This document shows, in pieces, positions 22,485 through 42,822 of a stretch of DNA of 64,000 bases; the stretch's first letter is position 1; every line of letters starts with the position of its first letter. The stretch is from assembly GCA_963705115.1 (NCBI GenBank), contig CAVPIX010000002.1, forward strand, positions 11,555 through 75,554, written 5' to 3'. The translations under genes and the position numbers were made by a program. The stretch comes from an uncultured delta proteobacterium. Lineage in GTDB: Bacteria > Desulfobacterota > Desulfobaccia > Desulfobaccales > 0-14-0-80-60-11. Below the pieces are notes generated by a model, which did not search any database, had not been told where the DNA came from, and was given only the letters and a program-made list of their open reading frames with translations.

Positions 22485-23222
22485 TCACTCACTATAATTC
22501 CTTACCAACACCATGGCCCAGATGAGGCTCGCCGCGCTGTAAACCGCCAAGACCCCGAGGGAGACCAGGGCGCCCGTGCTCCACACCGGGGAGCGCAAAA
22601 GGTCGTTGGTATGGGTCAGGGGGAGACAGCTCACGACAATCTGCAAAACCCAGGGCATCTGGTGGATAGGAAAGAAGGTGCCGCTGAAAAAGGCCATGGG
22701 CATGATGAAAAAATTGCTGAAATTGGCGGTGTCTTCGTGGGTTTTGGAGCGCATGCCCACCACCACCCCCAGAGCCGCGAAGAGCAGGCAGTTAATGAGC
22801 AGGGTCAGCAGGAACACCAGGTTCAGTTTGAGGCTGCTCCCCACCGCGAGCCCTACCACCACCAAAATGACCGACGAAAACAGGCCCCGCAGGATGCCCG
22901 CGGCCACCTGGCCCCAGACAATGGCGGCCGCGCTCACCGGGGCCTGAACATAGACCTGAAAGGTATGGAAGTACAGGCGGCCCATGGTGAGGCCGTTGGC
23001 CACCCAGGTGTAGGAGTTGATCATGGAGCTCATGGCCAAAAGCCCGGGGAGAAGATAGTTGAGATAGGTGCCCTCATCGATGGCGACCTTGCGGCCCAGC
23101 CCCAGCCCGAAGGCCAACAGATACAGGAGGGGCATGAGAAAGGCCGACACCACATACCCCAGGCGCAAGAGGCGCCGCTGGAAGATCAAGATCTCCCGCA
23201 AAAAAATGGGATACCAGTTCAT
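22485..23222 (-). CDS. ABC-2 type exporter permease
   Basis: Six-TM pattern; YLLPGL, PMAFFSGTFFP and PLTH. Confidence 0.9.
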   Translation of the reverse strand: MNWYPIFLREILIFQRRLLRLGYVVSAFLMPLLYLLAFGLGLGRKVAIDEGTYLNYLLPGLLAMSSMINSYTWVANGLTMGRLYFHTFQVYVQAPVSAAAIVWGQVAAGILRGLFSSVILVVVGLAVGSSLKLNLVFLLTLLINCLLFAALGVVVGMRSKTHEDTANFSNFFIMPMAFFSGTFFPIHQMPWVLQIVVSCLPLTHTNDLLRSPVWSTGALVSLGVLAVYSAASLIWAMVLVRNYSE

Positions 23223-24064
23223 GCCGCGCTTTTCTCCCCCAGGCTCTCACCGGTGAGCCTGATAAAGACATCTTCCAGGTTCACCCGGCGGACGGTGACC
23301 CCTTGGGGTTCCTCAAGGGCGCGGCGGTGAGCCTCCTCCCGGTCCTGGACGTACTCATAATGCCGGCGGCCGTTGCGCCGGGATTCCACGGTGTAGGCCC
23401 CGGTCTGGGCCTTGAGGGCCTGGGGGGTGTCCAGGGCTATGAGGCGGCCCCGGTTGAGGATGCCCACCCGGTCGCAAAGAACTTCCGCCTCTTCGATATA
23501 GTGGGTGGTGAGGAGCACCGTCATGCCCTCGGCCTTGAACTGGGTGACGAGGTCCCACAGGGTGCGCCGCAGTTGGGGGTCCAACCCCACGGTGGGCTCA
23601 TCCAGAAAAAGCACCCGGGGCCTGGTCATGATGGCCCTGATCATAAGGAGCCGCCGCTGCATGCCCCCGGAGAACTCCCGCACCCGGTGGCGGGCCCGGT
23701 CGCTGAGCTCCCCCAGCTTCAGGAGGTCGGTGATGCGGCCCTCCAGATCGGCAACCCGATGAAGTTTGCCGTAGATGAGGAGGTTCTCGTACGCAGTTAA
23801 TTCCTTGTCCAGATTGATGTCCTGGGGCGACACCCCGATCAGTTTTTTCACTTCCAGGGGCTGGCGCACCACATCATAGCCGGCGATGCTGGCCTGGCCC
23901 CGGGTGGGCCGGGCCAAGCCGGTCAAGATCTTGATGAGGGTGGTTTTGCCCGCGCCGTTGGGCCCCAGAAGGCCGAAAATCTCCCCGCCCTCAATCTCCA
24001 GGGACAAGTCCGCCAGCGCCGCGATGTCCTGATATTGTTTGCTTAAATGGTCAATAACAATCAT
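23219..24064 (-). CDS. ABC exporter ATP-binding subunit (DrrA/NodI-like)
   Basis: GPNGAGKTT, FSGGMQRR, LFLDEPT and TTHY. Confidence 0.95.
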   Translation of the reverse strand: MIVIDHLSKQYQDIAALADLSLEIEGGEIFGLLGPNGAGKTTLIKILTGLARPTRGQASIAGYDVVRQPLEVKKLIGVSPQDINLDKELTAYENLLIYGKLHRVADLEGRITDLLKLGELSDRARHRVREFSGGMQRRLLMIRAIMTRPRVLFLDEPTVGLDPQLRRTLWDLVTQFKAEGMTVLLTTHYIEEAEVLCDRVGILNRGRLIALDTPQALKAQTGAYTVESRRNGRRHYEYVQDREEAHRRALEEPQGVTVRRVNLEDVFIRLTGESLGEKSAA

Positions 24065-24572
24065 AGCTGATGAAAGAACCATATTTTTGGAAAATCAGGG
24101 GGCACGGGGTCATGGACCTCTGCCCCTTTCCTCGCACGTCCCTTCCTGAGTCCTGCCACTTGGAAAACCGCGCTTTCGCCTCAGGGGCGGGCTGCCCGGC
24201 GTTGCCCCCCGATCTTATCGGCTTTGCTTGCCTTATAGAAAGTTATGCACCCGTTTTGAGAAACGCAATGGATAGCGCCACTACAAATGGCGGAAGACGC
24301 CGCGCTTTCCGGCCTGGGACCTGTTAAGCTCTGCCCAGGAAAAAGGCGGGCCCGGAGGCCCGCCCCACCAATGATAAGAGGGACCATTGCGACCATCCCT
24401 CGTGAATCCAAAAGTTTTTTATAGCGGTTGCCAAAGGCAATTCGGTCTTTTAGGGGCATGGCTTGCCAGGACCCCAGGGTACAATCTTTCTTGCTGGTGG
24501 CCGGGCGCGGCAAGCCGCGCCCCTATCCTTTTTAATTCATTTGACTGCAACGCGATATAAGAATGGCAATCC

Positions 24573-26075
24573 TCAGGATGTGTTATTCCCAGGGAAGGAA
24601 AGCCGGTACAGGGGCAGTTCCACCGCAAAGGTTGTCCCTTTGGGGCTTGTTTCCTTAACCCAAATCCGTCCCTTGTTCTCCTTGATGATGCCATACGCGG
24701 TGCTCAGACCCAGCCCGGTGCCCTTTCCCGGCGCTTTGGTGGTGAAAAAGGGGTCGAAGATCCGGGGGAGGTTCTCTTTCGGAATACCCCGCCCCGTGTC
24801 GGCCACCTCAATATAGGCTTTGCCCGCGGACTTGTGGCGATAGGTGCGCAGCGTCATGGTCCCTTGATGGTCCATGGCGTCCACGGCATTCAAAATGAGA
24901 TTGACAATCACCTGGCCCAGCTGATCCCTATCCCCTTTGACGAGCATGATTTCGTCGGAAAGCTCTTTTTTGATCTGGGTACCCATGAAAAATTTGGGGT
25001 CGCGGATGAGATCCAGGCTGTGCTCCAGCAGGGTATTGACGTGCAGGATTTCTTCGCTGTGGCTTTGCTGTCGGCTGTAGGTCAGAAGGTTCTTGATAAT
25101 CTTGCCGCACCGTTTGGCGTCTTCATACATGCACTTGAGATTCTGCCGCCGGGGATCATCCTCTTCAAGGGTGTTCAATAACAGATCGGCATAGAAAATA
25201 ATACCGGTCAGGGGATTGTTGATCTCATGGGCCACCCCGGCCGCGAGCTGGCCCAGGGAAGCCATTTTTTCCGCCCGGGAAATCCGTTGGGCCATCTCCC
25301 GCATGGCCTGCTCGTGTTTGAGCTTCTCCCTTAAATCATTAAACAAGCCCATGGTGGCGACTTCCTGATCGCCCTCGTAAATGATGGCGGCCGTGAGTTC
25401 CACCGGGATCTCTTCCCTTCGAGCATTGATAAGGGTGACTCTGCTCAGGTGCAGCTTGCCTCTCCCCCCCTTGGTACCGTCCCTCAAAATACCCATCATC
25501 GCCCTGGCCTGCCCCTGGGGGTAAAGGTCCTTGGCGGTTACATTTTTGGCCTGGGCCTCCTGCAGCGAATATCCTGTGAGTTCCTCGGCCGCGGGGTTCA
25601 TGGTGAGAATCCTGCCCTGGAGGTCAGCGGCAATAATGGCAGTGGTGGAGCTCTCTATAAGTTTTTCGTTAAGGTCTTTGGCGCCCGAGAGTTCCCGCTC
25701 GAGCCTCTTCAAGTTCGTGACATCATGAATACATTCCACGACGTACAGAACTTCGCCATTCTCGTCGAGGATGGGGGAGAACACGCGATTATCCCATTTT
25801 TCTATGCCATTGCTGCAGGTGACATACGCCTGGACGGAATGACCGCGGCGGTCCGACAGAACCTTGGCCAGAGCGCACGTTTCCATGGGGCAGGGCTCCA
25901 CTGAGTTGTAGAAGAAATCGTGACAGGTCTTCCCTACTATATCCTCTTTACTGGACCCGAACTTCTCCAGGAAATTCGTGTTCACGTCCACTACGATTTT
26001 ATTGGGTTTCAGGATCAGGGTGGGAACAGACAGGCTGTCGAAAAGTCTGTTTTTCCAGATGTGGGGAGTCTGCAT
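24573..26075 (-). CDS. Cytoplasmic PAS-PAS sensor histidine kinase
   Basis: Two PAS-like domains (first has GKTCH...PCPMETC); AHEINNP H-box; DTGRGI and GTGLGL; no TM segment. Confidence 0.93.
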   Translation of the reverse strand: MQTPHIWKNRLFDSLSVPTLILKPNKIVVDVNTNFLEKFGSSKEDIVGKTCHDFFYNSVEPCPMETCALAKVLSDRRGHSVQAYVTCSNGIEKWDNRVFSPILDENGEVLYVVECIHDVTNLKRLERELSGAKDLNEKLIESSTTAIIAADLQGRILTMNPAAEELTGYSLQEAQAKNVTAKDLYPQGQARAMMGILRDGTKGGRGKLHLSRVTLINARREEIPVELTAAIIYEGDQEVATMGLFNDLREKLKHEQAMREMAQRISRAEKMASLGQLAAGVAHEINNPLTGIIFYADLLLNTLEEDDPRRQNLKCMYEDAKRCGKIIKNLLTYSRQQSHSEEILHVNTLLEHSLDLIRDPKFFMGTQIKKELSDEIMLVKGDRDQLGQVIVNLILNAVDAMDHQGTMTLRTYRHKSAGKAYIEVADTGRGIPKENLPRIFDPFFTTKAPGKGTGLGLSTAYGIIKENKGRIWVKETSPKGTTFAVELPLYRLSFPGNNTS

Positions 26076-26109
26076 GGTCGGTCTCTAGGGCAGCGTCTGT
26101 CGCTGCCGG

Positions 26110-27471
26110 TTAAGCATGGGAGCCCCGGTTGCCATTGGCTTTGAGGTTGTAATGCTTAATTTTGCTGTGCAGCGTCACCCGGCTGATTTCCAGGGCCTCC
26201 GCGGCCTTGGAAATGTTCCAGCCATGAAGCGCCAGAATCCGCTCGATGTGCTGCTTTTCGTTCTCTTTTAATGATTGCGGCAGGTCCTGGGTGGAGGATC
26301 GCAAGAGAAAGGCAAAATCATCCTTGGTAAGGTAGTGCCCTTTAGCCAACACCACGGCCCGTTCCACCGCATTTTCCAACTCCCGGACATTGCCGGGCCA
26401 CGGATAACTCTTCAGGGCGCTGATGGCCTGCGGATTGATGCCCGCCACCGGTTTATTGGTTTCCTGGCGGATGCGTTCCAGAAAGTGCTGGGCCAACACG
26501 GGGATATCATCAAGTCGAGCCCTGAGGGGCGGAATTTCAAGGTCAATGACATTCAAGCGATAGTAAAAATCCTGGCGAAAGGCGCCCCGCTCGATCTCCT
26601 TGGCAAGGTCCCGATGAGTGGCGGAAATCAGGCGGAACTCAATGGGAATCTTCTCGGTGCCGCCCACGCGGTGAAAGGATTTTTCCTGCAGCACCCGCAG
26701 AAGATCGATTTGCATTTTGAGGGGGATTTCGCCGATTTCGTCCAAAAACAGGGTCCCGCCCTGGGCCATCTCCAGCCGCCCTTTTTTGGCCCTTCGGGCC
26801 CCGGTGAAGGCTCCGCTCTCGTGGCCGAACAACTCGCTTTCCAGGAGCGTTTCGGTGAAGGCCCCGCAGTTTATGGGAATAAAAGGCCCTATACTCCGGT
26901 CGCTCATGGCATGGATGGCCTTGGCCACCAACTCTTTGCCGGTGCCGGTTTCGCCCCGCAGGAGCACGGGAGAATCGAAGGTGGCCACCTGTTCGATCAG
27001 TTTAAACAATTGCTGCATGCAGTGGGAGGCGCCGATCAAATCATCGCAGCGCACCCGGCAGGCCACCTGCTCCCGCAGGATGGCATTTTCATCAATCAGC
27101 TTTTTTTGCCGCAGGAGTCTTTCCAGGAGGCAGGCCAAATCCGCCGGTTCGAAGGGCTTGGTGAGATAATCGCAGGCGCCCCGCTTCATGGCGTCCACCG
27201 CGGTTTCAATGGAGCCGTACGCGGTGATCATGACCACCATGGAGTGGGGGCAGTTCTGCTTCAGGTAATCAAGGACCTGGAAGCCATCCACTTCGGGCAT
27301 TTTGATATCGAGGAAGATGAAATCGTAGTCCTTCTCGTCCACCATATCGAGAGCAGCCCGGCCGCCGTCCGCGCCCTCCACGTCATAGCCCGACATCCTG
27401 AACCAGTCCACCAGGGATTCCCGCACAATCTTTTCATCATCGACAATCAACACCTTCCATCTGCCGCTCAT
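26110..27471 (-). CDS. sigma54-dependent response regulator (REC-AAA+-HTH, NtrC family)
   Basis: DIKMP receiver, [29 protein letters not shown] and Fis-type HTH. Confidence 0.96.
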   Translation of the reverse strand: MSGRWKVLIVDDEKIVRESLVDWFRMSGYDVEGADGGRAALDMVDEKDYDFIFLDIKMPEVDGFQVLDYLKQNCPHSMVVMITAYGSIETAVDAMKRGACDYLTKPFEPADLACLLERLLRQKKLIDENAILREQVACRVRCDDLIGASHCMQQLFKLIEQVATFDSPVLLRGETGTGKELVAKAIHAMSDRSIGPFIPINCGAFTETLLESELFGHESGAFTGARRAKKGRLEMAQGGTLFLDEIGEIPLKMQIDLLRVLQEKSFHRVGGTEKIPIEFRLISATHRDLAKEIERGAFRQDFYYRLNVIDLEIPPLRARLDDIPVLAQHFLERIRQETNKPVAGINPQAISALKSYPWPGNVRELENAVERAVVLAKGHYLTKDDFAFLLRSSTQDLPQSLKENEKQHIERILALHGWNISKAAEALEISRVTLHSKIKHYNLKANGNRGSHA

Positions 27472-27599
27472 AAATCACCTTGCTTCAGAATGTTGGGGTT
27501 CAGGGAGAAACGCGGCCTGAGGTCTTCATCTCGCGCTTGGCCCCGATGACCTGCCTAAAGCTGAACTGTATAGATATTTATCATTATGCTCTTTCCTTG

Positions 27600-27615
27600 T
27601 GCAAAATCAATACCG
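27600..27615 (-). promoter_or_regulatory. Putative sigma54 (-24/-12) promoter for the regulator-kinase pair
   Basis: Minus strand CGGTAT-TGATT-TTGCA (GG-N10-GC). Confidence 0.55.
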
Positions 27616-27772
27616 AACATTTGTTAGCTTCCCGCCGGCAGAAGCGGGCAGGCGCCGCGGCTTTTCTCTTGGGGAACAACTTGATATCTTATCAGAAAGT
27701 GGTTGATACCTGCCTGGCGCAAATACCCCGCTCTGCGATCCCCGGAAATTGGCCTTGGGCCCGGACCCTAAG

Positions 27773-27878
27773 TGTACAGTATCTTAACAGTTGTACATAA
27801 AACCTTTACACTCATATAACACATTGAATTAATTATAATAGTTTTTGGCCTCCTGTAAGCCTGTCAAGATGCTTTACA
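27773..27878. promoter_or_regulatory. Candidate enhancer (UAS) sites TGT-N11-ACA
   Basis: tgtacagtatcttaaca (27773-27789) and tgtcaagatgctttaca (27862-27878), between two divergent sigma54-like promoters. Confidence 0.4.
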
Positions 27879-27989
27879 GTTGGGGAGCCCCACCCCAGAG
27901 AGACCCCTGCAACCGCCAATATCCCGGATGTCCCCCATTGCCACCGTTTACGGTGTTCCCCTTTAAAAAGACCGGAGAAAAAAGCTGCG

Positions 27990-28005
27990 TGGCACAGATA
28001 TTGTA
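27990..28005 (+). promoter_or_regulatory. Putative sigma54 promoter for the Cys-rich/GcvH-like genes
   Basis: TGGCAC-AGATA-TTGTA (-12 is GT rather than GC). Confidence 0.5.
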
Positions 28006-28101
28006 ATGATAGTAGTGCAAATGCGACAAACCAAGTAATAGCTGCTCTTCAACTAAAAGAACACCGTGTTATTACAGGGTTCAACCTGAAGGAGGCTGGT
28101 C

Positions 28102-28530
28102 ATGAGAACGGCAAGCGAACAGCAAAGTCAAGGGAGGCAGGTTTTTTCCATTAACGGTAATCAGTGTGTGTGGATGAAAGCCGGCGTGGTGAATTACAAG
28201 ACCTGCGATAATGCCTTCGATTGTACTTCCTGTACTTTTGATAAGGAAATCAGCAGGAAGTCGGCACAAAAAGCAACTGCCTTGGTTAGTTGGGGAGAGG
28301 TCATGCGGCAACCCCATTTGCATAAGGAATGCCGGCACATGCTGACCGGCCGGGTCCTTTTTAAACTCTGCGCCCACAACTACGAATGTAAGGACTGTGC
28401 CTACGATCAGCAACTGTATGAATATGACCAGCTCATGAATGAAGAGAACCTGTCAGCTATCGCCGCGGTTCAGGTTGATAACTTTCCCGGCTTCACAGTG
28501 TCCATGGTTGACAATTATTGCTCCATATGA
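28102..28530 (+). CDS. Stand-alone double Cys-rich domain (2 x CX12CX5CX2C), duplicate of the N-terminus of the next gene
   Basis: GGAGG RBS; near-identical to the N-terminal ~110 aa of 28621..29541; all eight Cys retained. Confidence 0.8.
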   Translation: MRTASEQQSQGRQVFSINGNQCVWMKAGVVNYKTCDNAFDCTSCTFDKEISRKSAQKATALVSWGEVMRQPHLHKECRHMLTGRVLFKLCAHNYECKDCAYDQQLYEYDQLMNEENLSAIAAVQVDNFPGFTVSMVDNYCSI

Positions 28531-28620
28531 GCATGACGCCGCTCGGCGCCAATAATTCCATTGCCACCCCGCACCGAAGAGAGCGCCTGCTCTGGTGCGG
28601 GGAAATCAAGGAGGGTGATT

Positions 28621-29541
28621 ATGAAAACGCCAGACGGACAAAAAGGCCACAGAGTTAAAGTTTTTTCCATGGAAGACAACCAGTGTGTCTGGATGAAGGC
28701 CGGGGTGGTGAATTTCAAAATCTGCGACAATGCCTTTGATTGCACTTCCTGCGCCTTTGACAAGGGCATCAGCAAGAAGGCGGCGCAAAAGCCCACCGCA
28801 CTGGTCAGTTGGCAGGAGGTCATGCAGCAGCCGCATTTGCACAAGGAATGCCGGCATATGCTCACCGGCCGGGTCCAATTCAAGTTGTGCTCCCACAATT
28901 TCGAATGCAAGGACTGCGCCTACGATCAGCAGCTCTATGAGTACGACCAGCTCCTGGTTGAAGAGGACCTGTGGTCTCATCCCGCGGCGACGGCCAACAA
29001 GATTGGCGGCTTCAGGGTGGCCGACGGCTATTACTACCACAAGGGCCACGGCTGGGCCCGCATCGAGCACGGCGGCTTCGTGCGCCTGGGGGTGGATGAT
29101 TTTGCCTGGAAGCTCCTCGGTTGGCCCACGGATATCTCTTTGCCGAAAATCGGCGCGAAGCTCAAGCCCACTGAGACAGGCTGGTCCATTACGAGAGAGG
29201 ACCATACCGCTGAGGTGCTCTCCCCCATGAGCGGCGTCGTCATGGCCACCAATCAAAACGCCTTGAAGCAGCCCAAGCTCGCCAAACAAGACCCCTACGG
29301 CCAGGGCTGGCTGGTGGTCATTGACCCCTTGAGCGGCCTGAAGAGCAAAACCAGAAGTCTGATGTTCGAGCAGAAAGCCGTTTCCTGGCTCAATGCCGAG
29401 GTCATGAAGCTGGACGACCTGGTGATGAGTGCCTACGGCGTCCCCCTGGCGGCCACCGGTGGTGAAATCGTGGACGATATCTACGGCAACCTGCATGATG
29501 TCAAGTGGGAAGACCTGATGCAGACGTTTCTGCATACCTGA
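28621..29541 (+). CDS. GcvH-like protein 1 (Cys-rich N-terminus, lipoyl Lys absent)
   Basis: YYHKGHGWA, VRLGVDDFA, SPMSGVV and DPYGQGWL define the H-protein fold; the lipoyl-Lys position reads Asp (ITREDHTAE). Confidence 0.85.
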   Translation: MKTPDGQKGHRVKVFSMEDNQCVWMKAGVVNFKICDNAFDCTSCAFDKGISKKAAQKPTALVSWQEVMQQPHLHKECRHMLTGRVQFKLCSHNFECKDCAYDQQLYEYDQLLVEEDLWSHPAATANKIGGFRVADGYYYHKGHGWARIEHGGFVRLGVDDFAWKLLGWPTDISLPKIGAKLKPTETGWSITREDHTAEVLSPMSGVVMATNQNALKQPKLAKQDPYGQGWLVVIDPLSGLKSKTRSLMFEQKAVSWLNAEVMKLDDLVMSAYGVPLAATGGEIVDDIYGNLHDVKWEDLMQTFLHT

Positions 29542-29573
29542 GGGTGGCCCGGCATGAGGGGCGGGGCGGCCAG

Positions 29574-30146
29574 TCAGGCCGGCAGGCTGCGCAGGCTCTG
29601 GCGCAGGGCAAAGCTGCACCGCTCGCAAAAAAAGAGGTCCAAGTCGTCGAGGTGGCGGAGTCCGGGGCTATAACACATGAGGCACTTGGGGGTCTCGCAA
29701 TGGTACAGGGAGAAAGTGTGAGCCAGTTCATGGAGGGCGATCTTGGCCAGACGTTCATAATAGACGCCCTCCGGAGCCACCACCCCGTCTTCCAGGTGCT
29801 TCAGGCGGAAATCGGAAATAATTGCCAGGCTTAGCCCCAACTCCGCCTGACCGAACACAAAGGTGAGTATCGGCGAGCACAGGTCTACGTTCGTGACGGC
29901 CAGGATGCGCAGGTGGTGCGGGAACGGAAAGCCGGCCAGGTGCTTAAGGATGAGCCCGGCATCATACTGATTGCGCTGGCGTTGAAAAGCTTCCGCCGGG
30001 ATGGCCATGGCCGGCAGCATCTCCACCGGCGTTTCCAAAAGCGCCTGGATGTTGGCGGCTATCACCCGCAGCGCGGGGCGCGGCACCCGGCCCATCAAGG
30101 TCAGACCGATGGCGGGGGCCTGGGGCTTTTCTCGTGGCGGCGGCAT
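29574..30146 (-). CDS. Archaemetzincin-like Zn metalloprotease
   Basis: TFVFGQA, HELAHTFSLYHC...CLM...FCERC (HExxHxxGxxH with Gly replaced by Ser; Cys4 site retained). Confidence 0.85.
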   Translation of the reverse strand: MPPPREKPQAPAIGLTLMGRVPRPALRVIAANIQALLETPVEMLPAMAIPAEAFQRQRNQYDAGLILKHLAGFPFPHHLRILAVTNVDLCSPILTFVFGQAELGLSLAIISDFRLKHLEDGVVAPEGVYYERLAKIALHELAHTFSLYHCETPKCLMCYSPGLRHLDDLDLFFCERCSFALRQSLRSLPA

Positions 30147-30745
30147 ATCAAAAAGCCCGGGGGGGGGGATTCATAGACATGGTTTCACATTATGGGCGGG
30201 ACTGTAGGGTCTTTTCCCTCCATAAGTCTTTTTGAATTTTAGATGTTCTCTCCCACTTCTGCTTTCAGAAAATAGCATGCGCAGTCCTCCCGTCAAGGCC
30301 AAACCTGGGACCCGCTCCCCTGGGCCTTGATCCGCCTATTCCCGCACTACCAGCCATGGCCAAACCGCATTTTTCCCGAAGGGCAGGACCTAAGGTCCCT
30401 GCCCTCCCCCATCCCCTCTCCCAACCCCTTGAGAAGCCGCCGGGTCCATTGACTACAAGTCTCTGGGATTGATGAAAATCCCATCAAAAAGTGATATCTT
30501 AGATTTACCTGTTGCGAAATAAATCACAAAAGGCCTAGGATTTTTCTGGTCAAGGCTGGTAACTTTTCGTAATATCGTGAAAATACTATTTCCCTGAGGC
30601 ATCATGAGCAAGACCGGCAGCGGCAAAGGCCCCCTGGTGGGCCACTTCACCTGCGACCCCGTGCTGCGTCGGCGCCCCCCTTTCCGCCGCGATCTCCCCT
30701 GGATTGAGGTGACAGGCGGTCCTGCTCCTTTCCCGGAGTGTTCTC

Positions 30746-33001
30746 ATGAGTCCTTTTAAATCCAACTACAATCTTGCCATAGTGGGCGCCGGCCGGCAGG
30801 GGGTGTCCATCCTGGCGGCCCTGGTGCCGCCCCGCAAGGAAAATGAATTTCTCCGGGTGGTGGGCATAGCGGACCTCAATCCCCTAGCTCCCGGCATCGT
30901 CTACGCCAACCGCCACGACCTTTTCGTCACCGACAATTTCACCGATCTCCTCAAGATTCCGGACCTGGACATCATCGTCAACGCCACCGGCCGCCCGGAG
31001 GTCCTGGAGCAATTGAACGAGCAGCGCCCGGAGGGGCTCATCATCTTGAGCGTTAACCGCCCCTATTCCTGGGAAGATTTCTGGGACCTCGTCTCCATGG
31101 AGCTGTCTGCCCCGCAAGTCGCGCCCATACGCCTGGGCATCGTGGGGGGCGGCAAGGCGGCCCACGAAGTCCTCCAGCTTATTACCAAAGACCGCCGCCA
31201 CCAACGGCGCATCGACATTGTCGGCGTGGCTGACCCCGATAAGGAAGCCCCGGGGGTTATCCTTGCCCAGCACATGAAAATTCCGGTTTTCAAGAATTGC
31301 GCCCTGCTGTTGGCGGAAAAGCCGGATGTCATCCTGGAGCTCACCGGCGACCCCAAGGTGCGGGAGCAGGTTATCCAGCAGAAGGACCCTCATGCCCAGA
31401 TTATCGACCACATCAAGGCCCGTTTGTTTTGGGACCTCCTGCGTTATGAAGAGGAAGGCCTGCGCCGGAAAGTGGAAAGTGAAATCAAAATTGCCGGCCA
31501 GCGGGACCGGTTTCAGAGAATTTTTGACCATCTCCCTGATCCGGTGCTGGTGTTAAGATCGGATTATCTCGTGGAGGATGCCAACCTCCCCTCTTTAGAG
31601 CGCTTTCAGAAAAAGGCCGAGGAAGTGGTGGGCCGGCCTTGCTATGAAGTTTTTCATGGCTTTGAGGACCCCTGCGATCACCTGGGCATGACCTGCCCCT
31701 TGCCGGAGGTTTTGGACAAGTGCCAGGCCGTCAAGGTCTTGCAGCGCTGTGACCAGGCTGACGGCACCCAGAGCTATGACGAAATCACCATGGCGCCTCT
31801 GTGTCCGCCGGAGGGCGCCAAAAAAAGGGTGATCGAGGTCATCAGGGATGTCACCCCCCGCAAGAACTTGGAAGAAGCCCTGCGCCTTTCGGAAAAAAGG
31901 GTCCGCAAGGATAAGGCCTTTCTCGAGACCATTGTCAACGGCATCCAAGATCACATGATGGTCATCGGCCTGGATTACCGGATCATCGAGGTCAATGAGG
32001 CCCTGCTGCAGATGGTGGGCCAGAAGCGGGAAGAGGTAGTGGGCAAGCATTGTTATCAGGTGTCCCACCACTTGCATGAGCCCTGCACCGACCCCGATCA
32101 TCCCTGTCCCTTAAAGGATGTCCTGACCACGGGCAAGGCGGTCTCCGCCACCCACGTACACTTCGACAAGGACGGCCGGGAGCGCTATTACCAGGTGGTC
32201 TGCCACCCCATATACGATGATAACGGGCGCATCCATCAGGTGGTTGACCTGGCCCGGGATGTCACCCAGGAAATCACCAGCCGCACCCAGTTGCTGCACG
32301 ACGACAAGATGACGTCCCTGGGTAAGTTATCCGCCAGTGTCGTCCATGAAATTAACAACCCGCTGACCGGAATCCTTAATTTTATCAAATTGATACAGAG
32401 ATTGGTAGGCAAAGGCGAGCTGGACGAGGATGATCTGTCGCAATTATCCGGCTACCTCGATTTGGTTTATAAGGAAACCTACCGGGTCAGCAAAACGGTA
32501 TCCAATCTTCTGATGTTTTCCCGCAAGACCAAGGCGGAGTTCCGGCCCGTGAATCTGAATAACCTGATCTCCGAGACCATCTCCCTGGTGGAAAGCCAGT
32601 TGCGCTTGCAGGACATCAAGGTGAAGCGCCGCCTATCCGCCGACCTGCTGTCCGTCATGGGGGATCAGAGTCAGTTGAAACAGGCGCTCTTAAACCTGTT
32701 GCTGAACGCCATTGAGGCCATGCCCACCGGCGGCGCCCTGACATTGAGCACCAAAAACACCCGGAGCCAGAATGTGGAGATGCAAATCGCCGACACCGGG
32801 GTAGGCATCCCCAAAGAAAGTTTTTCTTATATTTTCGAACCCTTCTATACCACAAAGAAAACCGGCTCCAGCGTAGGTCTTGGGCTTTCCGTGGTGTATG
32901 GCATCATCCGCGACCACAAAGGCACCATCAAAGTGGATAGCACTGTGGGGCAAGGGACGGTCTTTACTGTCCGACTGCCTGCTACTAAACCGGAGGAATA
33001 A
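30746..33001 (+). CDS. Cytoplasmic histidine kinase: two Rossmann-like domains, two Cys-motif PAS domains, HisKA-HATPase
   Basis: IVGAGRQG...GIAD and IVGGGKAA...GVAD; GRPCYE...PC...CPL and GKHCYQ...PC...CPL; VHEINNP; DTGVGI; VGLGL. Confidence 0.92.
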   Translation: MSPFKSNYNLAIVGAGRQGVSILAALVPPRKENEFLRVVGIADLNPLAPGIVYANRHDLFVTDNFTDLLKIPDLDIIVNATGRPEVLEQLNEQRPEGLIILSVNRPYSWEDFWDLVSMELSAPQVAPIRLGIVGGGKAAHEVLQLITKDRRHQRRIDIVGVADPDKEAPGVILAQHMKIPVFKNCALLLAEKPDVILELTGDPKVREQVIQQKDPHAQIIDHIKARLFWDLLRYEEEGLRRKVESEIKIAGQRDRFQRIFDHLPDPVLVLRSDYLVEDANLPSLERFQKKAEEVVGRPCYEVFHGFEDPCDHLGMTCPLPEVLDKCQAVKVLQRCDQADGTQSYDEITMAPLCPPEGAKKRVIEVIRDVTPRKNLEEALRLSEKRVRKDKAFLETIVNGIQDHMMVIGLDYRIIEVNEALLQMVGQKREEVVGKHCYQVSHHLHEPCTDPDHPCPLKDVLTTGKAVSATHVHFDKDGRERYYQVVCHPIYDDNGRIHQVVDLARDVTQEITSRTQLLHDDKMTSLGKLSASVVHEINNPLTGILNFIKLIQRLVGKGELDEDDLSQLSGYLDLVYKETYRVSKTVSNLLMFSRKTKAEFRPVNLNNLISETISLVESQLRLQDIKVKRRLSADLLSVMGDQSQLKQALLNLLLNAIEAMPTGGALTLSTKNTRSQNVEMQIADTGVGIPKESFSYIFEPFYTTKKTGSSVGLGLSVVYGIIRDHKGTIKVDSTVGQGTVFTVRLPATKPEE

Positions 33002-34352
33002 GTGCTGCCGCATAAAAAGATCAGGATCCTCGTCGTGGACGACGAACTGAGCATCCGTGAATCCCTTAAAGGTTGGCTGCAACTGGACGGCTACCAGGTG
33101 GACGCCGCGGCCGGCGGTTCGGAGGCCCTGGCCAAGAACGCCGAGAACCGCTTCGACATCATGCTCATCGACGTCAAGATGCCTGAAATGGACGGCTTGA
33201 CCTTGCTGAAAAAGGTTAAGGAAACCGATGCCGATATCGCCATTCTCATGATGACCGCCCACGGCGCCATTCGGGATGCGGTGGAAGCCATGAAACTGGG
33301 CGCCTACGATTATCTGCTCAAGCCCTTCGAACTGGAGGAATTAAGCCTCAGCATCGAAAAACTGGTGCATTTGCAAACCCTGGCCATGGAAAACCTTATC
33401 CTGAAGGAGCGGGTCGCCAGCATCACCCGGTTTGAAAACCTGGTGAGTCAGGCTCCGGTCATGATTAAGCTGTTTGAAACCATTGTGGATGTGGCCCAAA
33501 CCGACGCCACCGTCCTCATCACCGGCGAAACCGGCACCGGCAAAGAGTTGGTGGCCCGGGCCATCCATACTCAAAGCCCGCGCTGTTACGCCCCTTTCAT
33601 TGCCATCAACTGCGGGGCCTTCACCGAACAACTCCTGGAGAGCGAACTCTTCGGCCACGAGCGGGGCGCGTTCACCGACGCCAAAAGCGCCAAGAAGGGC
33701 CGCCTGGAAATGGCCAATGCCGGCACCCTCTTCCTGGACGAAGTGGGTGATATTTCCATGAGGATGCAGATTGACCTGCTGCGGGTGCTCCAGACCCGGG
33801 AATTCACCCGAGTGGGCGGCACCCTCACCCTGCGCAGCGATTTCCGGGTCATCGCCGCCACCAACCAGGATATCCAGGAAGCCATCCAGAAAAAGACCTT
33901 CCGATCCGACTTGTTTTACCGGTTAAATGTGGTTCATCTCGAGGTACCGCCCCTGAGGGAGAGGCCGGAAGATATTCCCCTTTTTGGCCCAGCATTTTTT
34001 GTGGTGCTATGCCACCGAGACCAATAAAAAGATCGACTCCATCCATCCGGAGGCCATGGAGGCCTTGCGGCGCTATCTGTGGCCCGGAAATGTCAGGGAA
34101 CTGGAGAATGCCATCGAACGGGCCGTAGTGGTGGGGAAAGGCCGGCAAATCCAACTAAAGGATTTGCCTTTTACCATTGCTTTGGGAGGCGCGGCGGAAA
34201 TGGAAAAATTGTCTCTGGAGGAGATGGAGCGCCAGCATATTGCCCGGGTCCTGGCCATCGAAGCCGGCAATCTTTCCAATGTTGCCAGAGTCCTGCGCAT
34301 CAACCGCTCCACGCTTTATGCCAAGATCAAGAAATACGGCTTGGCGCCCTAA
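33002..34352 (+). pseudogene. sigma54-dependent response regulator split by a +1 frameshift (T5 at 33981-33985)
   Basis: ORF 33002..34027 carries REC and AAA+ (GAFTDA). Removing one T gives DIPLLAQHFL and joins ORF 33984..34352 (WPGNVRELEN, HTH). Confidence 0.85.
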
Positions 34353-34392
34353 AACCGTTTCTTAAACTCTCCAATGCTAACTTATGGGTTGA

Positions 34393-35031
34393 ATGGCAAA
34401 CCATCCGTTTTTAGGCCTGGTGGCCTTAGGTCCCGTCGATCCGGACATCCTTCGGAGACTGCGCACCACCCTCGCTAAGTTCCTCAAGCTGCCGGTGCGG
34501 GTGCTGAAACCCAAGCCCCTGCCGGCGCAGACGTATCACTTGACGCGGCAGCAGTATAATTCCACCCAGTTGCTGGAATTTCTCCTGGACCATGTAAAAA
34601 CCAGGGCCCTGCGGGTTTTAGGGGTGACGGCCGGGGATCTTTATATTCCCATCCTGACTTTCATTTTCGGTGAGGGCCTGGTAAACGGCAAGGCTGCCAT
34701 CATCTCCCTGTTCCGTCCCCGGGGTGACGCCGATGGGGTCACACCTTCCCGGACGGTCCTCATGGAACGCCTTATAAAGCTGAGCCTGCACGAATTGGGT
34801 CACACCTTCGGCCTGGGGCATTGCCGCGAAAAGGGGTGTTTAATGGGATTTTCGTCGAATTTGGAAAAATTGGACCAGACAGAAATTGCTTTCTGTGATT
34901 ATTGCCAGGTTTTAATGACGGATTTCTTTCTGGAGCAAGGCTTGCAGCCGCCCCTCAAGCGGTATGCAGAAACTCCTGTACAAGTCGCTTCCAACCCAGG
35001 TTCGGGTAATTCCCATAAACATCGTCAATGA
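34393..35031 (+). CDS. Archaemetzincin-like Zn metalloprotease
   Basis: TFIFGEG, HELGHTFGLGHC...CLMGFS...FCDYC (canonical motif). Confidence 0.9.
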   Translation: MANHPFLGLVALGPVDPDILRRLRTTLAKFLKLPVRVLKPKPLPAQTYHLTRQQYNSTQLLEFLLDHVKTRALRVLGVTAGDLYIPILTFIFGEGLVNGKAAIISLFRPRGDADGVTPSRTVLMERLIKLSLHELGHTFGLGHCREKGCLMGFSSNLEKLDQTEIAFCDYCQVLMTDFFLEQGLQPPLKRYAETPVQVASNPGSGNSHKHRQ

Positions 35032-35836
35032 TCGTCCCTCCGGAAGGCAGGAAGGCTCCCGGAGCGGCTTGCAGCATCCCCAACAGCTTGATGATTTCGC
35101 TCTCGGTCCAGGCGATGTTGCACTGGCCAAAAAGCATCTCTTCCAGATCCCCCTTCAAGTTGGTGGGAGTAACTACAAAGAGCCAGCCCTCACCGTAGGG
35201 ATCGTCATGGGTGATTTGCGGTCTTTCCCGGACCTTGGGATTAATGGCGTCGATGGTCCCGTCAAGGGGCGCCAGAACCTCAGCCTTTTTCCTCTGGCGG
35301 CCCAGGCTCATGAACGGTTCGTTAGCTCTAATTTTTTGGCCGATTTTCGGAAAATCCATCCTGGTGACCGGGCCCAGGAGTTTTTGCGAGAAGTCGTCCA
35401 AGCCGAGACGCACCCGGTCAGCCTTCTCCAGAGCCACCCAGGTGTGGCCCAGATGCAGAAAATTGGAGGTGGGCACTTGAATGCCGAAAATTTCATGCAC
35501 CCGGGGTTGGGGGGGGGCCAGGAAAAAATCGAATTGTTCTTCCAGAAGCTCGTCAAAGGAACACTGGTGGCAGAAATTTGTCTTCATCAACGGGCACTGG
35601 CGGCGTTCCCCGAACCGTTGGTGCATCTTGTTTTCCCACGGCAGCCGCTTTACTGCCTGTGCCGCAGGATCCTTCGCTGACTGTCGCCGGGCCAGTTGTT
35701 TGACCGCGGATTCGGTCATGGCCTGGTCGAATTCGCAGGCCTGGCAATCGAAGTTATTATCACAGAGCTTGAACTGGATCACCCCGGCATCCACCCAGAT
35801 GCAGGATTTCTTACTTTCCATAACTCTCTCTGCCAT
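34955..35836 (-). CDS. GcvH-like protein 2 (Cys-rich N-terminus, lipoyl Lys absent)
   Basis: Start at ATG 35836. CIWVDAGVIQFKLCDNNFDCQAC; LHLGHTW, LGLDDF, APLDG and DPYGEGW; the lipoyl position reads Arg. Confidence 0.85.
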   Translation of the reverse strand: MAERVMESKKSCIWVDAGVIQFKLCDNNFDCQACEFDQAMTESAVKQLARRQSAKDPAAQAVKRLPWENKMHQRFGERRQCPLMKTNFCHQCSFDELLEEQFDFFLAPPQPRVHEIFGIQVPTSNFLHLGHTWVALEKADRVRLGLDDFSQKLLGPVTRMDFPKIGQKIRANEPFMSLGRQRKKAEVLAPLDGTIDAINPKVRERPQITHDDPYGEGWLFVVTPTNLKGDLEEMLFGQCNIAWTESEIIKLLGMLQAAPGAFLPSGGTIIDDVYGNYPNLGWKRLVQEFLHTA

Positions 35837-35986
35837 GATCTTAGCTCCCAGCCTGACAAACCCTGGCGGATTTACCAATGAGCAAGGTTTGCCCAATCCA
35901 CCCTGCCTTCACCCTTCTCCAGGAAGGGTGAAGGCCAGGGAACAGGAGAAACAGCTGCGTTCTCCTGATTTTCAGGTCTCCCTCCT

Positions 35987-36601
35987 TTACTTCACCGGAC
36001 GGATGAGACCCTTTTTCATCAGGTTTTTCAGGAAAAATTCCTGGACCAGGAGCTTCCAGCCCAACTCCTGATAATTGCCATAGACGTCGTCGACGATTTC
36101 GCCGCCGTCAGGCAGGGTGACGCCAATCCTGGTCTCCATCAGGTTCAGCAGGCGGTGCGACTCCTTTTCCATCCAGATGACCGCATCCTCGCCGGTGAGC
36201 AGGTTCTCCAGATTGCGGCGGAGATTGATGGGCTTGACCATAAACAGCCAGCCTTCCCCGTAAGGATCATCATGAATGAGACCAGGGTTTTGCTGGACCT
36301 TGGGGTTGACCTCCTCAATGGCGCCGTCCACCGGAGCCTCAAAGGAAGCCTTTTTCCCCTCCCGGATCAAAGCCAGGCAAAGATGATCCTGAAAGTAGAC
36401 CTTGCCGATCTCCGGCAGCCTGACTTCCTTTGCCAGGCCCAGGAGCTTTTGAGAGAAGTCATCCAGTCCCACCCTTACCAGATCGTCGCCCTCAGGCGCC
36501 GCCCAGGTATGGCCCCGGTGCAGGTAATAATTCTCGGTGGGCACTTGAAAACCGAAAACCTCGCTCATCTGTGACCGTGTGATCTTTTCCTGAGGCATCA
36601 T
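35987..36601 (-). CDS. GcvH-like protein 3 (no Cys-rich domain, lipoyl Lys absent)
   Basis: Start at ATG 36601 after AAGGAGG; LHRGHTW, VGLDDF, APVDG and DPYGEGW; the lipoyl position reads Gly. Confidence 0.85.
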   Translation of the reverse strand: MMPQEKITRSQMSEVFGFQVPTENYYLHRGHTWAAPEGDDLVRVGLDDFSQKLLGLAKEVRLPEIGKVYFQDHLCLALIREGKKASFEAPVDGAIEEVNPKVQQNPGLIHDDPYGEGWLFMVKPINLRRNLENLLTGEDAVIWMEKESHRLLNLMETRIGVTLPDGGEIVDDVYGNYQELGWKLLVQEFFLKNLMKKGLIRPVK

Positions 36602-36677
36602 GACCTGTCCCTCCTTAAAGGACATACTGAAGTTCGATGTTTCAACCTCTGCCACTATCTCGCGGCAGAGGGGACCG

Positions 36678-37583
36678 TTATGCATTCGGAGTGACAGCCA
36701 CCATATGGCTGATGACGGCGTCCCTGGGAACGTTGCAAATCGACGCCACCTGTTTGGGATCAAATCCCAGACAGAGGGCCAGCAGCTGGTTGTAATCGAA
36801 CACCGGGATCTTGTAGCGCTCTTCGCCCAATTGTTCGTTGAGGATATTCTGAACCCTTTCCATGTGCATCAGACAGGTAATGCAGGAGACCGCGATGAAA
36901 TCGGCCTTGGTTTCTTCAAGGATGGCGTCGAATTTCTTTTGGGCGAACTCGATGGCCTGCTCCGGGGTGCTTTTCATAAAGCCGCCGGCCCCGCCGCAAC
37001 AGTCCAGCTCGCGACTAAAGCCGTCCACCTCGGCTCCCAGGGCTTCCACCAGCAGCCGCAGGCCCTTGGGCGCCCGGGGAGATTCCTCAAACCCCACGAC
37101 TTCGCTGGGGAACAGGGTGTGGCAGGGGTACTGCACCACCCCGTGGAGTCCCGTGAGGCTCTTTTTGAGATTCGAGGAAATTTTCTCCGGACCTACTTCC
37201 CGCAAGAGGACCTCCGACACATGGCGCACCTTGGATTTCCCGGTGACGGACCGCCCGGTGGGCTCGAGCAGTTCATTGACGTGGGCCAGTTTTTCCTGGT
37301 CATGGATCATGTGCTCGCGTCCCATGCGCAGGGAACTGTAGCAGGAACCGCACTGGACTACGAAATCACAGCCATGCTGCTCGGCAATGGAAAGGTTCCA
37401 GCCGCTGGTGGCCATCCAGGCCTCCTCGTCGGACGATGGGAAAGACCCGAAGGCCGGACAGCAGACATAGTTGTCGGCATCCACGATGTCAATGCCCAAG
37501 ACCGGCATTGACGCCCGAATGGCCCGCTCCACATCCGGCCGGATGGCAGGGGTGTTACAGCCCGGGAAGAAACATAGTTGCAT
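36678..37583 (-). CDS. hdrB: Heterodisulfide reductase subunit B (two CCG domains)
   Basis: Start MQLCFFPGC at 37583; VCCPAFG, QCGSCY, QYPCH, DCCGGAGG and SCITC. Confidence 0.9.
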   Translation of the reverse strand: MQLCFFPGCNTPAIRPDVERAIRASMPVLGIDIVDADNYVCCPAFGSFPSSDEEAWMATSGWNLSIAEQHGCDFVVQCGSCYSSLRMGREHMIHDQEKLAHVNELLEPTGRSVTGKSKVRHVSEVLLREVGPEKISSNLKKSLTGLHGVVQYPCHTLFPSEVVGFEESPRAPKGLRLLVEALGAEVDGFSRELDCCGGAGGFMKSTPEQAIEFAQKKFDAILEETKADFIAVSCITCLMHMERVQNILNEQLGEERYKIPVFDYNQLLALCLGFDPKQVASICNVPRDAVISHMVAVTPNA

Positions 37584-37615
37584 CTTATTGTCCTCGTGTG
37601 TATGAACTTGCTCTT

Positions 37616-38128
37616 TTATCCCTTGAACATATAGTCGTTTTCGCTGACTATCTGGGTCTGCATGAGCATTTCCTGGAACATGGCCAGTTGCTCCGGGTTT
37701 TTGGTTATGATGGGCAAGGGGGGCAACCCCAGGGAATCGCGCAACTCCTGGTTGGCGCCGGCCGCCTGGGTATAGCCCCGCTTGTAGATCTCCACGATGG
37801 CCGACGGGATCAGGGTCTCGTCGTTTTTGCACTGCCATTGCCGGATGGAGAGGATCATCTCAAAGGGCATGACATTTTGGGGGCACATCTCCTCGCACCT
37901 GGAACAGGAGACACAGGCCCAGGGCGTGTCATCCATGAGGAGATCCTCCTCCAGTCCCAGGATCACCTTCCGAGCCAGATTCCTGACCAGCAGCGGCGGG
38001 TCCCCATGGGAGGCCGGACAGCCGGAGACACAGGTGCTGCAATTGAAACAGTAATGCAGGTTGCCGGTGTTATAGATATCTTTCCACAGATCCTTGGTCG
38101 ATCCTTCTTGCAAGTCCATGATCCCCAC
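37616..38128 (-). CDS. hdrC: Heterodisulfide reductase subunit C (2x[4Fe-4S])
   Basis: CFNCSTCVSGCP and WACVSCSRCEEMCP. Confidence 0.9.
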   Translation of the reverse strand: MGIMDLQEGSTKDLWKDIYNTGNLHYCFNCSTCVSGCPASHGDPPLLVRNLARKVILGLEEDLLMDDTPWACVSCSRCEEMCPQNVMPFEMILSIRQWQCKNDETLIPSAIVEIYKRGYTQAAGANQELRDSLGLPPLPIITKNPEQLAMFQEMLMQTQIVSENDYMFKG

Positions 38129-42393: not shown

Positions 42394-42822
42394 TCAGATT
42401 GCCATTTGAGCCAAGGCCCGCAGCGGGCTTGGTCCTAAGTGCCTCAATTTTTTGGTCATCTCGTCCGCGACTTCTTTCAGCATGGTGCCCTCACTGGCGG
42501 CGATCCACCTGAGCCAGAAACGCTGTTCATCGATGCCGTACTGTTTCAGGATCTCGGTGAGGTTGGCCACCCGGCGCCGGGCCTTCAGGTTGCCGTTGAT
42601 ATAATGACAGTCCCCCGGCCAGCAGCCGCCGATGAGGACGCCGTCCGCGCCGTTCAGAAAGGCCTTGATGACGTATTTCGGGTCCACCATGCCGGTGCAC
42701 ATAACCCGGATGATCTTGAGGTTGGGCGGGTACGCCAGGCGCGAAGTGCCGGCCAGGTCGGCGGCAGTGAAGGTGCACCAGTTACAGAAAAAGGCTACGA
42801 TTTGGGGTTCTAACTCGCTCAT
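42394..42822 (-). CDS. mvhD: MvhD-like [2Fe-2S] subunit
   Basis: FFCNWC, RVMCTG, GADGV and GCWPGDCHY. Confidence 0.93.
   Translation of the reverse strand: MSELEPQIVAFFCNWCTFTAADLAGTSRLAYPPNLKIIRVMCTGMVDPKYVIKAFLNGADGVLIGGCWPGDCHYINGNLKARRRVANLTEILKQYGIDEQRFWLRWIAASEGTMLKEVADEMTKKLRHLGPSPLRALAQMAI

Follow-up and report, generated by a model that had tools for sequence, protein, structure and literature searches.

Two diverged copies of a conserved gene module linking a sigma-54 two-component system, a GcvH-like protein without the lipoyl lysine, and an archaemetzincin in Desulfobacterota

INTRODUCTION

The ZraSR-zraP system of Escherichia coli is an NtrC-family, sigma-54-dependent two-component system that has its target gene next to its regulators. 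The locus described here shares elements of that design. It lies in a 64,000-nucleotide stretch of DNA from an uncultured delta proteobacterium of the order Desulfobaccales (phylum Desulfobacterota; GenBank assembly GCA_963705115.1, contig CAVPIX010000002.1, positions 11,555 to 75,554), which is called the window below. The locus carries two sets of genes for a histidine kinase (HK), an NtrC-type response regulator (RR), a protein resembling the glycine cleavage H protein GcvH (GH), and an archaemetzincin (AMZ) of peptidase family M54. The same four gene types are found together in other genomes of the phylum, and in one of the two sets the GH gene belongs to an operon for a heterodisulfide reductase (Hdr)-like complex.

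Energy conservation in sulfate reducers and syntrophs depends on flavin-based electron-bifurcating machinery, and which substrates bacterial Hdr complexes use physiologically is still a matter of debate. An HdrABC/HdrL-MvhD complex is encoded by Sfum_0819-0824 of Syntrophobacter fumaroxidans (PMC5947623), and the sigma-54 regulator DVU2394 controls the adh-hdr/flx genes of Desulfovibrio vulgaris (PMC3333781). The LbpA lipoate-binding proteins of the sulfur-oxidizing sHdr system are defined by a lipoylated lysine and by dedicated lipoate ligases, with ligase and LipS genes nearby and the gene set sHdrC1B1AHC2B2 (Cao et al. 2018, PMC6067878). Structures of archaemetzincins have been solved, but the family has no known cellular role (PMC3427221), and neither the work on AmzA of M. 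kandleri and A. fulgidus (PMC3427221) nor the description of AMZ-tk (PMC4681839) reports a physiological partner. No published description linking archaemetzincin, GcvH-like proteins, and sigma-54 was found in the literature searched.

RESULTS

Two diverged copies of one gene set

A first-pass annotation of the window had named eight genes in two sets of four types, and all eight were found where it had placed them when the listing of open reading frames (ORFs) was combined with Pfam and NCBIfam models. In set 1, RR1 (26110-27471) and HK1 (24573-26075) form a minus-strand operon that diverges from a plus-strand pair consisting of a gene for a stand-alone Cys-rich domain protein of 142 amino acids (CysDom, 28102-28530; a truncated paralog of the GH1 N-terminus) and GH1 (306 amino acids, 28621-29541). 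AMZ1 (29574-30146, minus strand) converges on GH1. In set 2, HK2 (30746-33001), RR2 (33002-34352), and AMZ2 (34393-35031) follow one another on the plus strand and converge on GH2 (34955-35836, minus strand). The tail-to-tail arrangements reported earlier, a 32-bp gap between GH1 and AMZ1 (29542-29573) and a 77-bp overlap between GH2 and AMZ2 (34955-35031), agree with the ORF ends. Three features had been overlooked: a third GcvH-like gene, GH3 (35987-36625, minus strand), the CysDom gene, and a one-base frameshift in RR2. The start of GH1 is most likely at 28621 rather than at 28561, as the ATG there follows AAGGAGG and homologs begin with MKT.

Identity between the two sets is 31% for the kinases, 52% for the regulators, 36% for GH1 and GH2, and 39% for the archaemetzincins. 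Because these values span only 31-52%, the sets are, as judged from the alignments, old diverged paralogs and not the products of a recent duplication. All module proteins of the window are predicted to be soluble, and HK1 has no hydrophobic segment. The 4.0-Mb genome has two M54 genes, both of them here, and four GCV_H genes, of which three lie here and the fourth is a canonical gcvH on another contig (C7). With the linkage also recurring across the phylum, the arrangement is far beyond chance.

Conservation across the Desulfobacterota

A pattern-plus-tblastn scan covering one genome per species returned 460 relatives of the Cys-rich GH proteins, the best 80 of which were taken with 10-kb flanks. 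These loci come from Desulfobaccales, Syntrophobacteraceae, Desulfosarcina, Desulfonema, Desulfarculaceae, and related metagenome-assembled genomes (MAGs). Neighbors were counted by BLAST of six-frame ORFs against the window proteins, and the counts that follow directly refer to the 49 loci in which each flank extends for 5 kb or more. An AMZ gene lies within 5 kb of GH in 49 of 49 loci, orthologous-grade RR and HK genes are each present in 46, and all three partners occur together in 46. The four gene types thus co-occur widely, and the refuting condition named in the first-pass annotation, a lack of co-occurrence in other genomes, does not hold.

The linkage takes several forms. Two main layouts were observed, one in which RR-HK diverges from GH as in set 1, which is also the layout in Syntrophobacter fumaroxidans MPOB, and one in which HK, RR, and AMZ converge on GH as in set 2. 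In most families the AMZ gene belongs to the regulatory operon in the order HK>RR>AMZ. The AMZ gene is the immediate convergent neighbor of GH in 55 of the 71 loci (among all 80) that have AMZ within 5 kb. The pairing also survives rearrangement, being co-directional in L093 and L094 and maintained with short GH paralogs in other families. Twelve loci from other families carry HK-RR-AMZ with one to three GH genes, which are mostly short and lack the Cys domain. Furthermore, when an M54 model and a GH profile were applied to a sample of 401 genomes from the phylum, M54 and GH genes were found 1-7 kb apart, in both convergent and co-directional orientations, in at least roughly 60 genomes by by-eye comparison of coordinates. 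There is little doubt that the gene set constitutes a conserved functional unit.

All-against-all clustering of the neighbors revealed no fifth gene near the frequency of the four core genes. An ABC-2 type transporter pair (ATPase and permease, 22485-24082) lies directly downstream of HK1, a position that is not conserved elsewhere. In about 15 of the 80 loci (e.g., L059 18779-19555 and L077 18107-19366), genes for a DUF134 plus NifX-like (Nitro_FeMo-Co) protein and an Mrp/NUBPL-type Fe-S carrier ATPase lie several kilobases from the module. In a small-genome family (L087, 9013-12795), the genes after a GH pair encode a Fer4_11 (HybA/DmsB-like) Fe-S protein, a 371-amino-acid protein with no Pfam match, and then HK-RR, with cytochrome b561 and a multihaem cytochrome c on the other strand.

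An H-protein fold without the lipoyl lysine

GH1 combines an N-terminal domain bearing two Cys4 units, a GcvH fold (Pfam GCV_H, 9e-18), and a C-terminal extension. GH2 is likewise Cys-rich, and GH3, which is 52% identical to GH2, retains the extension and has no Cys domain. In alignments with E. coli GcvH, the column of the lipoyl lysine (ESVK motif) holds D in GH1, R in GH2, and G in GH3, and it varies among D, E, K, R, G, and N across 38 homologs, which bears out the earlier description of these proteins as lacking the lipoyl lysine. Their scores against the curated GcvH models NF002270 (66-80 bits, cut-off 117) and TIGR00527 (61-72 bits, cut-off 115.85) are low. An AlphaFold2 model of GH1 reaches a predicted local distance difference test score (pLDDT) above 90 over residues 121-306, and a Foldseek search with this model returned H-proteins only (template modeling score 0.85-0.92, about 26% identity). 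A true H-protein fold can be predicted for GH1 with confidence. The extension of about 50 residues beyond this fold (GGEIVDDIYGN...W..LV.EFL.T) is kept in GH1-3 and in the aligned homologs, and it matched no Pfam family.

The GH proteins thus share the fold and core motifs of GcvH (HxW, G.DDF, DPYG.GW) and differ from it by the missing lysine, the added N- and C-terminal domains, and the absence of an adjacent gcvP or gcvT. LbpA is likewise a GcvH-fold protein genetically tied to an Hdr-like complex, whereas the GH proteins have an unconserved lysine column, the double Cys4 domain, and the C-terminal extension. Descriptions of sHdr include neither a sigma-54 system nor AMZ linkage, and the hosts of GH belong to sulfate-reducer or syntroph lineages. 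No lipoate ligase was found among the genes scanned between 22.5 and 48.5 kb of the window, a scan that took in part of the window's ORFs. Lacking a lipoyl lysine, the GH proteins qualify neither as GcvH nor as LbpA by the trait that defines each, and yet their public annotation is "glycine cleavage system H protein."

In metatranscriptomes, only short contigs with 94-97% identity were found over GH1 and AMZ1, which is weak evidence of expression in relatives.

Kinases and regulators

HK1 is a soluble PAS-PAS-HisKA-HATPase kinase (Pfam) with the PAS motif CHDFFYNSVEPCPMETCA. This motif, of the form C[YH]-x8-11-(P/E)C-x3-8-C(P/A), is found inside the PAS domain of 62 of 73 module kinases, and such a conserved three-Cys arrangement fits redox or metal sensing. 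The circuit had been called redox-responsive at first pass; the motif is consistent with that description, and a redox cue would be one of the signals compatible with it. HK2, also soluble, has two PAS domains with the Cys motif followed by HisKA-HATPase, and these are preceded by two tandem Rossmann-like domains (30746-31500; IVGAGRQG and IVGGGKAA; Pfam GFO_IDH_MocA and NAD_binding_3), making HK2 a candidate NAD(P)(H)-binding sensor.

RR1 has all the parts of an NtrC-type sigma-54 activator, namely REC, the Sigma54_activat AAA+ domain with GAFTGA at residue 220, the lid, and a Fis-type helix-turn-helix (HTH_8). RR2 has the same parts, with GAFTDA, distributed over two ORFs (REC plus AAA, and lid plus HTH) because an extra T in a T5 run (33981-33985) breaks the frame. 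Contigs X1 and X4, from two independent 2017 freshwater metagenome runs, have T4 at this position and encode a full REC-AAA-lid-HTH protein. Raw reads of run X22 included none that cover the site, so that the Logan contigs alone were informative. Since two public metagenome assemblies read through, RR2 is treated as intact; it is probably intact in the population, the frameshift most likely being a homopolymer error or a strain variant. Related long-read MAG loci such as L005 contain many similarly fragmented genes, which suggests homopolymer errors in such assemblies.

In common with NtrC-family systems, the module has a HisKA kinase, a REC-AAA+(GAFTGA)-HTH_8 regulator, a predicted -24/-12 promoter, and putative upstream palindromic sites. 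It differs from them in its soluble three-Cys PAS kinases (with Rossmann-like domains in HK2), the constant archaemetzincin gene, the GcvH-fold target without a lipoyl lysine, and a -12 element of TTG(T/A/G) in group-1 loci.

Sigma-54 promoters and candidate activator sites

The genome encodes rpoN and 24 sigma-54 activators. A predicted sigma-54-type promoter precedes CysDom-GH1 (27990-28005, plus strand; TGGCACAGATATTGTA), with TTGT and not TTGC as its -12 element. A weaker element facing the other way is a candidate -24/-12 promoter of the RR1-HK1 operon (27600-27615, minus strand; CGGTATTGATTTTGCA). Between them lie a putative upstream activator site, TGTACAGTATCTTAACA (27773-27789), and a weaker second site (27862-27878). 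Comparable signals recur elsewhere. Nearly all group-1 loci have TGGCAY-N5-TTG(T/A/G) upstream of GH at about -100, or before an intervening Cys-domain gene, and most have, on the strand of the candidate RR1-HK1 promoter, the same GGTATC-N4-TTTGCA element. On the coding strand, 34 of 82 loci, every one of them in L039-L082, have a near-consensus TGGCAC-N5-TTGCW ahead of GH, compared with 2 on the opposite strand. The 17-bp site TGTACAGTTTCTTAACA precedes the -24 element by 90-290 nt in about 25 set-1-type loci, and a TGTAGC-N5-GCTACA-type site lies at -180 to -240 in the remaining loci. Because a sigma-54 promoter and a TGT-N11-ACA site precede GH almost everywhere, the GH gene is very probably the conserved sigma-54-dependent output of the module.

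When a position weight matrix (PWM) of the RR1-type site was run across the genome, the top match was the site at 27773 (30.2 bits, with that site in the training set), and the next scored 21.4 bits. With RR1-type sites confined to the local intergenic region and none near the hdr promoter, RR1 seems to act locally, on CysDom-GH1 and on its own expression, in the same divergent, single-target layout as ZraSR-zraP.

The best sigma-54 promoter in the window is predicted elsewhere, upstream of the hdr-GH3-GH2 operon (48572-48587, minus strand; TGGCATGTGTCTTGCT), where it matches the consensus at 11 of 12 positions. A candidate activator site, TGTTGGATTATAAGACA on the minus strand (48652-48668), lies at -81 of this promoter, and further candidates are at 48711-48734 and 48749-48765. 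In L006, where GH3-GH2 leads the hdr operon, a sigma-54 promoter is accompanied by a related site, TGTTGAATTATCCAACA, about 180 nt upstream. The site at the hdr promoter fits a set-2 regulator, for which RR2 is a candidate. As with the hdr genes under DVU2394, set 2 has a predicted sigma-54 promoter before its hdr operon. A shared TGT-N11-ACA site joining RR1 to the hdr promoter was considered and rejected: the RR1-type PWM finds none near 48.6 kb, and a bare match to this pattern was discounted because the pattern carries too little information. Overall, the phosphorelay postulated at first pass is well matched by a cytoplasmic two-component circuit, with soluble kinases and NtrC-type regulators, that feeds predicted sigma-54 promoters with upstream sites.

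Another candidate promoter, between GH3 and GH2, was rejected by eye, as the spacing of its GG..GC element is one base short. The same 150-bp gap contains a perfect 12-bp inverted repeat (CCTTCACCCTTC-CTGGA-GAAGGGTGAAGG, 35905-35935, minus strand) that may be an attenuator or an RNA-stability element.

Association with Hdr

The minus-strand hdr operon begins with a QmoC-HdrD-like fusion (46202-48526), continues with HdrL (42826-46209; HdrA plus a GltD-like NAD(P)H module), an MvhD-like protein (42394-42822; named from its ORF sequence, outside the Pfam scan), an FrhB/FdhB-like Fe-S protein (41244-42374; Pfam), a large HdrA-type flavoprotein (38132-41233), and an HdrB-like CCG-domain subunit (36678-37838; Pfam CCG, TIGR03288 213 bits), and ends with GH3 and GH2. 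The fusion, HdrL, and the flavoprotein were assigned with Pfam/NCBIfam models. Although the HdrA flavoprotein, CCG-domain HdrB, MvhD, and HdrL with its GltD-like module are all present, all scores fall below the equivalog cut-offs for the methanogen enzymes, and the product is therefore regarded as an Hdr-like complex and not a CoB-CoM reductase. The S. fumaroxidans complex has the same subunit set (HdrL, MvhD, an FdhB-like Fe-S protein, HdrA, and HdrB/C), whereas the operon described here has the QmoC-HdrD fusion first, two GcvH-like genes last, and a sigma-54 promoter; in S. fumaroxidans the GH module is at a separate locus.

The two-set block had been said to adjoin the hdr operon. This is correct and understated: GH3 and GH2 come next after HdrB in its own orientation (gaps, 52 and 150 bp), and the block thus does more than adjoin the operon. 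The two genes are also last in the hdr operons of L003, L005, and L007. Among the well-flanked loci, 18 of 49 have hdr genes within 10 kb, where the chance expectation for a 20-kb window is about 5-6%, a rough estimate from the approximately eight HdrA-like loci in this 4-Mb genome.

A more direct connection comes from five genomes of the same family or order, in which the GH domain matched by the profile forms part of an open frame of about 1000 amino acids. The two fusions that were examined (L095, 6047-9040, and L096, 6604-9522, both minus strand) contain an N-terminal HdrA match, two Fer4 motifs, FlpD/MvhD, a Molydop_binding-like region, and, at the C-terminus, a domain of the GH2 type with 52% identity to GH2, extension included. 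Their neighbors are genes for an HdrA-like flavoprotein and methylenetetrahydrofolate reductase and, in L095, an HdrC-like protein. This gene content suggests an Hdr complex linked to MetF, into which a GH domain lacking the lipoyl lysine is built. GH2, GH3, and the HdrA-fused domains group in one supported clade (100/99) of a maximum-likelihood tree, with the fusions sister to GH2, and GH1 falls in a large clade of stand-alone Cys-rich GH proteins. The GH proteins probably work with Hdr/MvhD complexes.

Evidence against a universal Hdr role was also obtained. The S. fumaroxidans module has no hdr genes in the 20.9 kb retrieved, and in Desulfosarcina-type loci a sigma-54 promoter was found for GH and none facing the divergent HdrL. 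The first-pass proposal that the circuit controls hdr expression or assembly therefore holds in part. The best sigma-54 promoter in the window does precede the hdr operon, but hdr control is not the core job of the module, given hdr genes in only 18 of 49 loci, an RR1-type site that is only local in the genome, and the Desulfosarcina loci. Hdr is one frequent partner and not the defining target.

The archaemetzincins

AMZ1 and AMZ2 score above the Pfam M54 cut-off and reach 135 and 142.9 bits with the NCBIfam archmetzin model (cut-off 145). The extended motif HExxHxxGxxHCx4CxMx17CxxC is exact in AMZ2 (HELGHTFGLGHC...C.LM...CDYC), and in AMZ1 Ser replaces the metzincin Gly (HELAHTFSLYHC...C.LM...CERC). 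The core HExxHxx?xxHC-x4-CxM...CxxC is intact in 74 of 76 module archaemetzincins, which look like active enzymes by this measure. The Gly position (L001-L082) is S in 34, D in 15, and N in 14, and Gly is found in 4 of 74, including AMZ2. The module members share the M54 family and extended motif with AmzA, AMZ-tk, and human AMZ1/2; they differ from these known archaemetzincins in mostly having S, D, or N for Gly, in being bacterial, and in lying within a sigma-54 two-component operon. A run of ten G residues (C10 on the minus strand, 30159-30168) immediately precedes the AMZ1 start codon; it may mark a weak spot in the assembly, or it may be a tract of the 5' leader that is prone to slippage.

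The constant pairing of AMZ with GH in several orientations makes GH the first substrate candidate. That AMZ acts on GH is a tentative proposal, more doubtful than the Hdr association, and the kinase, the regulator, or an Hdr subunit are alternative substrates. For the "regulated proteolysis" of the first-pass annotation, the support consists of gene linkage and an intact catalytic motif, and the proposal is not supported as stated.

DISCUSSION

Proposed mechanism

On balance, the explanation toward which the evidence leans, by a modest degree, is that the window carries two ancient copies of one conserved sigma-54 module whose GH product serves Hdr/MvhD-type complexes. A cytoplasmic kinase would sense a redox, thiol, or metal cue through its three-Cys PAS domain, aided in HK2 by the Rossmann-like domains, and would phosphorylate the NtrC-type activator. 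The activator would then bind its TGT-N11-ACA site and fire a sigma-54 promoter, the conserved product of which would be the non-lipoylatable GcvH-fold protein. Set 1, with RR1-HK1 divergent from CysDom-GH1, would be a self-contained, autoregulated unit, and in set 2 the predicted sigma-54 promoter would stand ahead of the whole hdr operon that ends in GH3 and GH2. In flavin-based electron-bifurcating complexes of the HdrA/MvhD type, the GH proteins may take the part of an accessory or adaptor subunit, or they may be the protein substrate. The archaemetzincin gene is in most cases transcribed together with those of the kinase and regulator, and its product would most likely act on GH, in maturation or turnover. 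Relative to the first-pass annotation, what is retained is a conserved sigma-54 circuit of the redox type that has a GcvH-fold protein as its output and a protease attached to it; Hdr as the defining target, along with proteolysis as an established activity, is not retained.

Several observations weigh against this explanation. The -12 element of the GH1 promoter departs from the canonical TTGC. The assignment of RR2 to the hdr promoter draws on two similar sites in two genomes, and that promoter did not stand out in a scan with a PWM from distant group-2 loci. The loci counted are phylogenetically related, so the conservation counts overstate independence. In as many as 31 of 49 loci, hdr genes are absent from the surrounding 10 kb, and the partners of GH in other families are instead an Fe-S protein and the 371-amino-acid protein (L087); GH may therefore serve several redox modules, or none directly. 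The tie between AMZ and GH is gene linkage, which alone cannot show who cleaves what. Finally, the Cys domain has resisted modeling, as described below.

Alternative explanations

The set-1 layout invites comparison with systems such as ZraSR-ZraP or PspF-PspA. By analogy, GH would have no part as a partner of an enzyme and could be the sole induced product, binding the kinase or activator to shut the system off, with the archaemetzincin removing GH to reset the switch and the Hdr neighbors being other members of the same stimulon. One target divergent from RR-HK, sigma-54-type promoters on both sides with shared sites between them, the restriction of the RR1-type site to the set-1 intergenic region, and the inclusion of AMZ in the HK>RR>AMZ operon of most families would all be expected of such a circuit. 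Feedback of this kind leaves unexplained the covalent fusion of GH2-type domains to HdrA-MvhD proteins, the GH genes inside hdr operons, and the presence of two or three GH paralogs per locus, and it is considered unlikely.

A different role is suggested by the Cys-rich domain. In GH1 and GH2 it consists of two C-x12/13-C-x5-C-x2-C repeats with eight Cys residues that are invariant or nearly so. No significant match was found in Pfam, NCBIfam, or a PDB sequence search, and two AlphaFold2 runs (38 and 91 sequences) gave low confidence (pLDDT <50 and about 60), so that no fold is claimed and metal or cluster binding by this domain is a guess. A search for other architectures containing the domain returned GCV_H fusions and stand-alone forms only, the latter including homologs of 173-183 amino acids in related MAGs. 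CysDom itself is evidently a maintained gene, since comparison with the GH1 N-terminus gives a ratio of nonsynonymous to synonymous substitution rates (dN/dS) of 0.16 at a dS of about 1.15. If the double Cys4 domain is a site for Zn, Fe, or an Fe-S cluster, or a carrier of persulfide, GH could be a stress-induced carrier or chaperone that serves to supply cluster-rich enzymes such as Hdr or to protect them, with the three-Cys PAS sensing the same species and AMZ recycling damaged carrier. The near-invariant Cys residues, purifying selection on the stand-alone domain, the PAS motif in 62 of 73 kinases, and the Mrp/NUBPL-type and NifX-like genes several kilobases off in about 15 loci are consistent with this role. 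Those Fe-S carrier neighbors occur in a minority of loci, however, there is no confident model of the domain, and in GH3 and the short forms of L083-L092 the Cys domain is missing altogether although the linkage to AMZ and sigma-54 is retained. A metal- or sulfur-handling function is thus about as improbable as feedback control.

That a spare glycine cleavage H protein, a housekeeping peptidase, and an unrelated two-component system came together twice by chance, as the public annotation of GH might suggest, is scarcely credible given the missing lipoyl lysine, scores of 66-80 bits versus 117, the canonical gcvH on another contig, and an AMZ linkage that holds in 49 of 49 loci across families and orientations.

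Implications

Returning to the favored explanation of a sigma-54 module that serves Hdr/MvhD-type complexes, its most specific form would make the archaemetzincin a hydrolase dedicated to the maturation or turnover of a GcvH-fold metalloprotein that does not depend on lipoate; this metalloprotein would be a docking arm or substrate of Hdr/MvhD complexes and the counterpart of LbpA in sulfate reducers and syntrophs. This form is speculative and rather unlikely as a whole. If true, it would provide the first physiological substrate for archaemetzincins and would establish a novel class of Hdr accessory proteins, subject to redox control through sigma-54.

There are broader consequences for the gene families involved. 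The label "glycine cleavage H protein" is wrong for the GH family and distorts pathway predictions, such as those for the reductive glycine pathway in Desulfobacterota. For archaemetzincins, a constant genomic partner and a regulatory setting make function testable. Furthermore, the kinases with three-Cys PAS and Rossmann-like domains are candidate cytoplasmic redox sensors for electron-bifurcating metabolism, and the existence of HdrA-MvhD-GH fusions and of GH genes within hdr operons suggests that an accessory component of the electron-bifurcating machinery has been overlooked.

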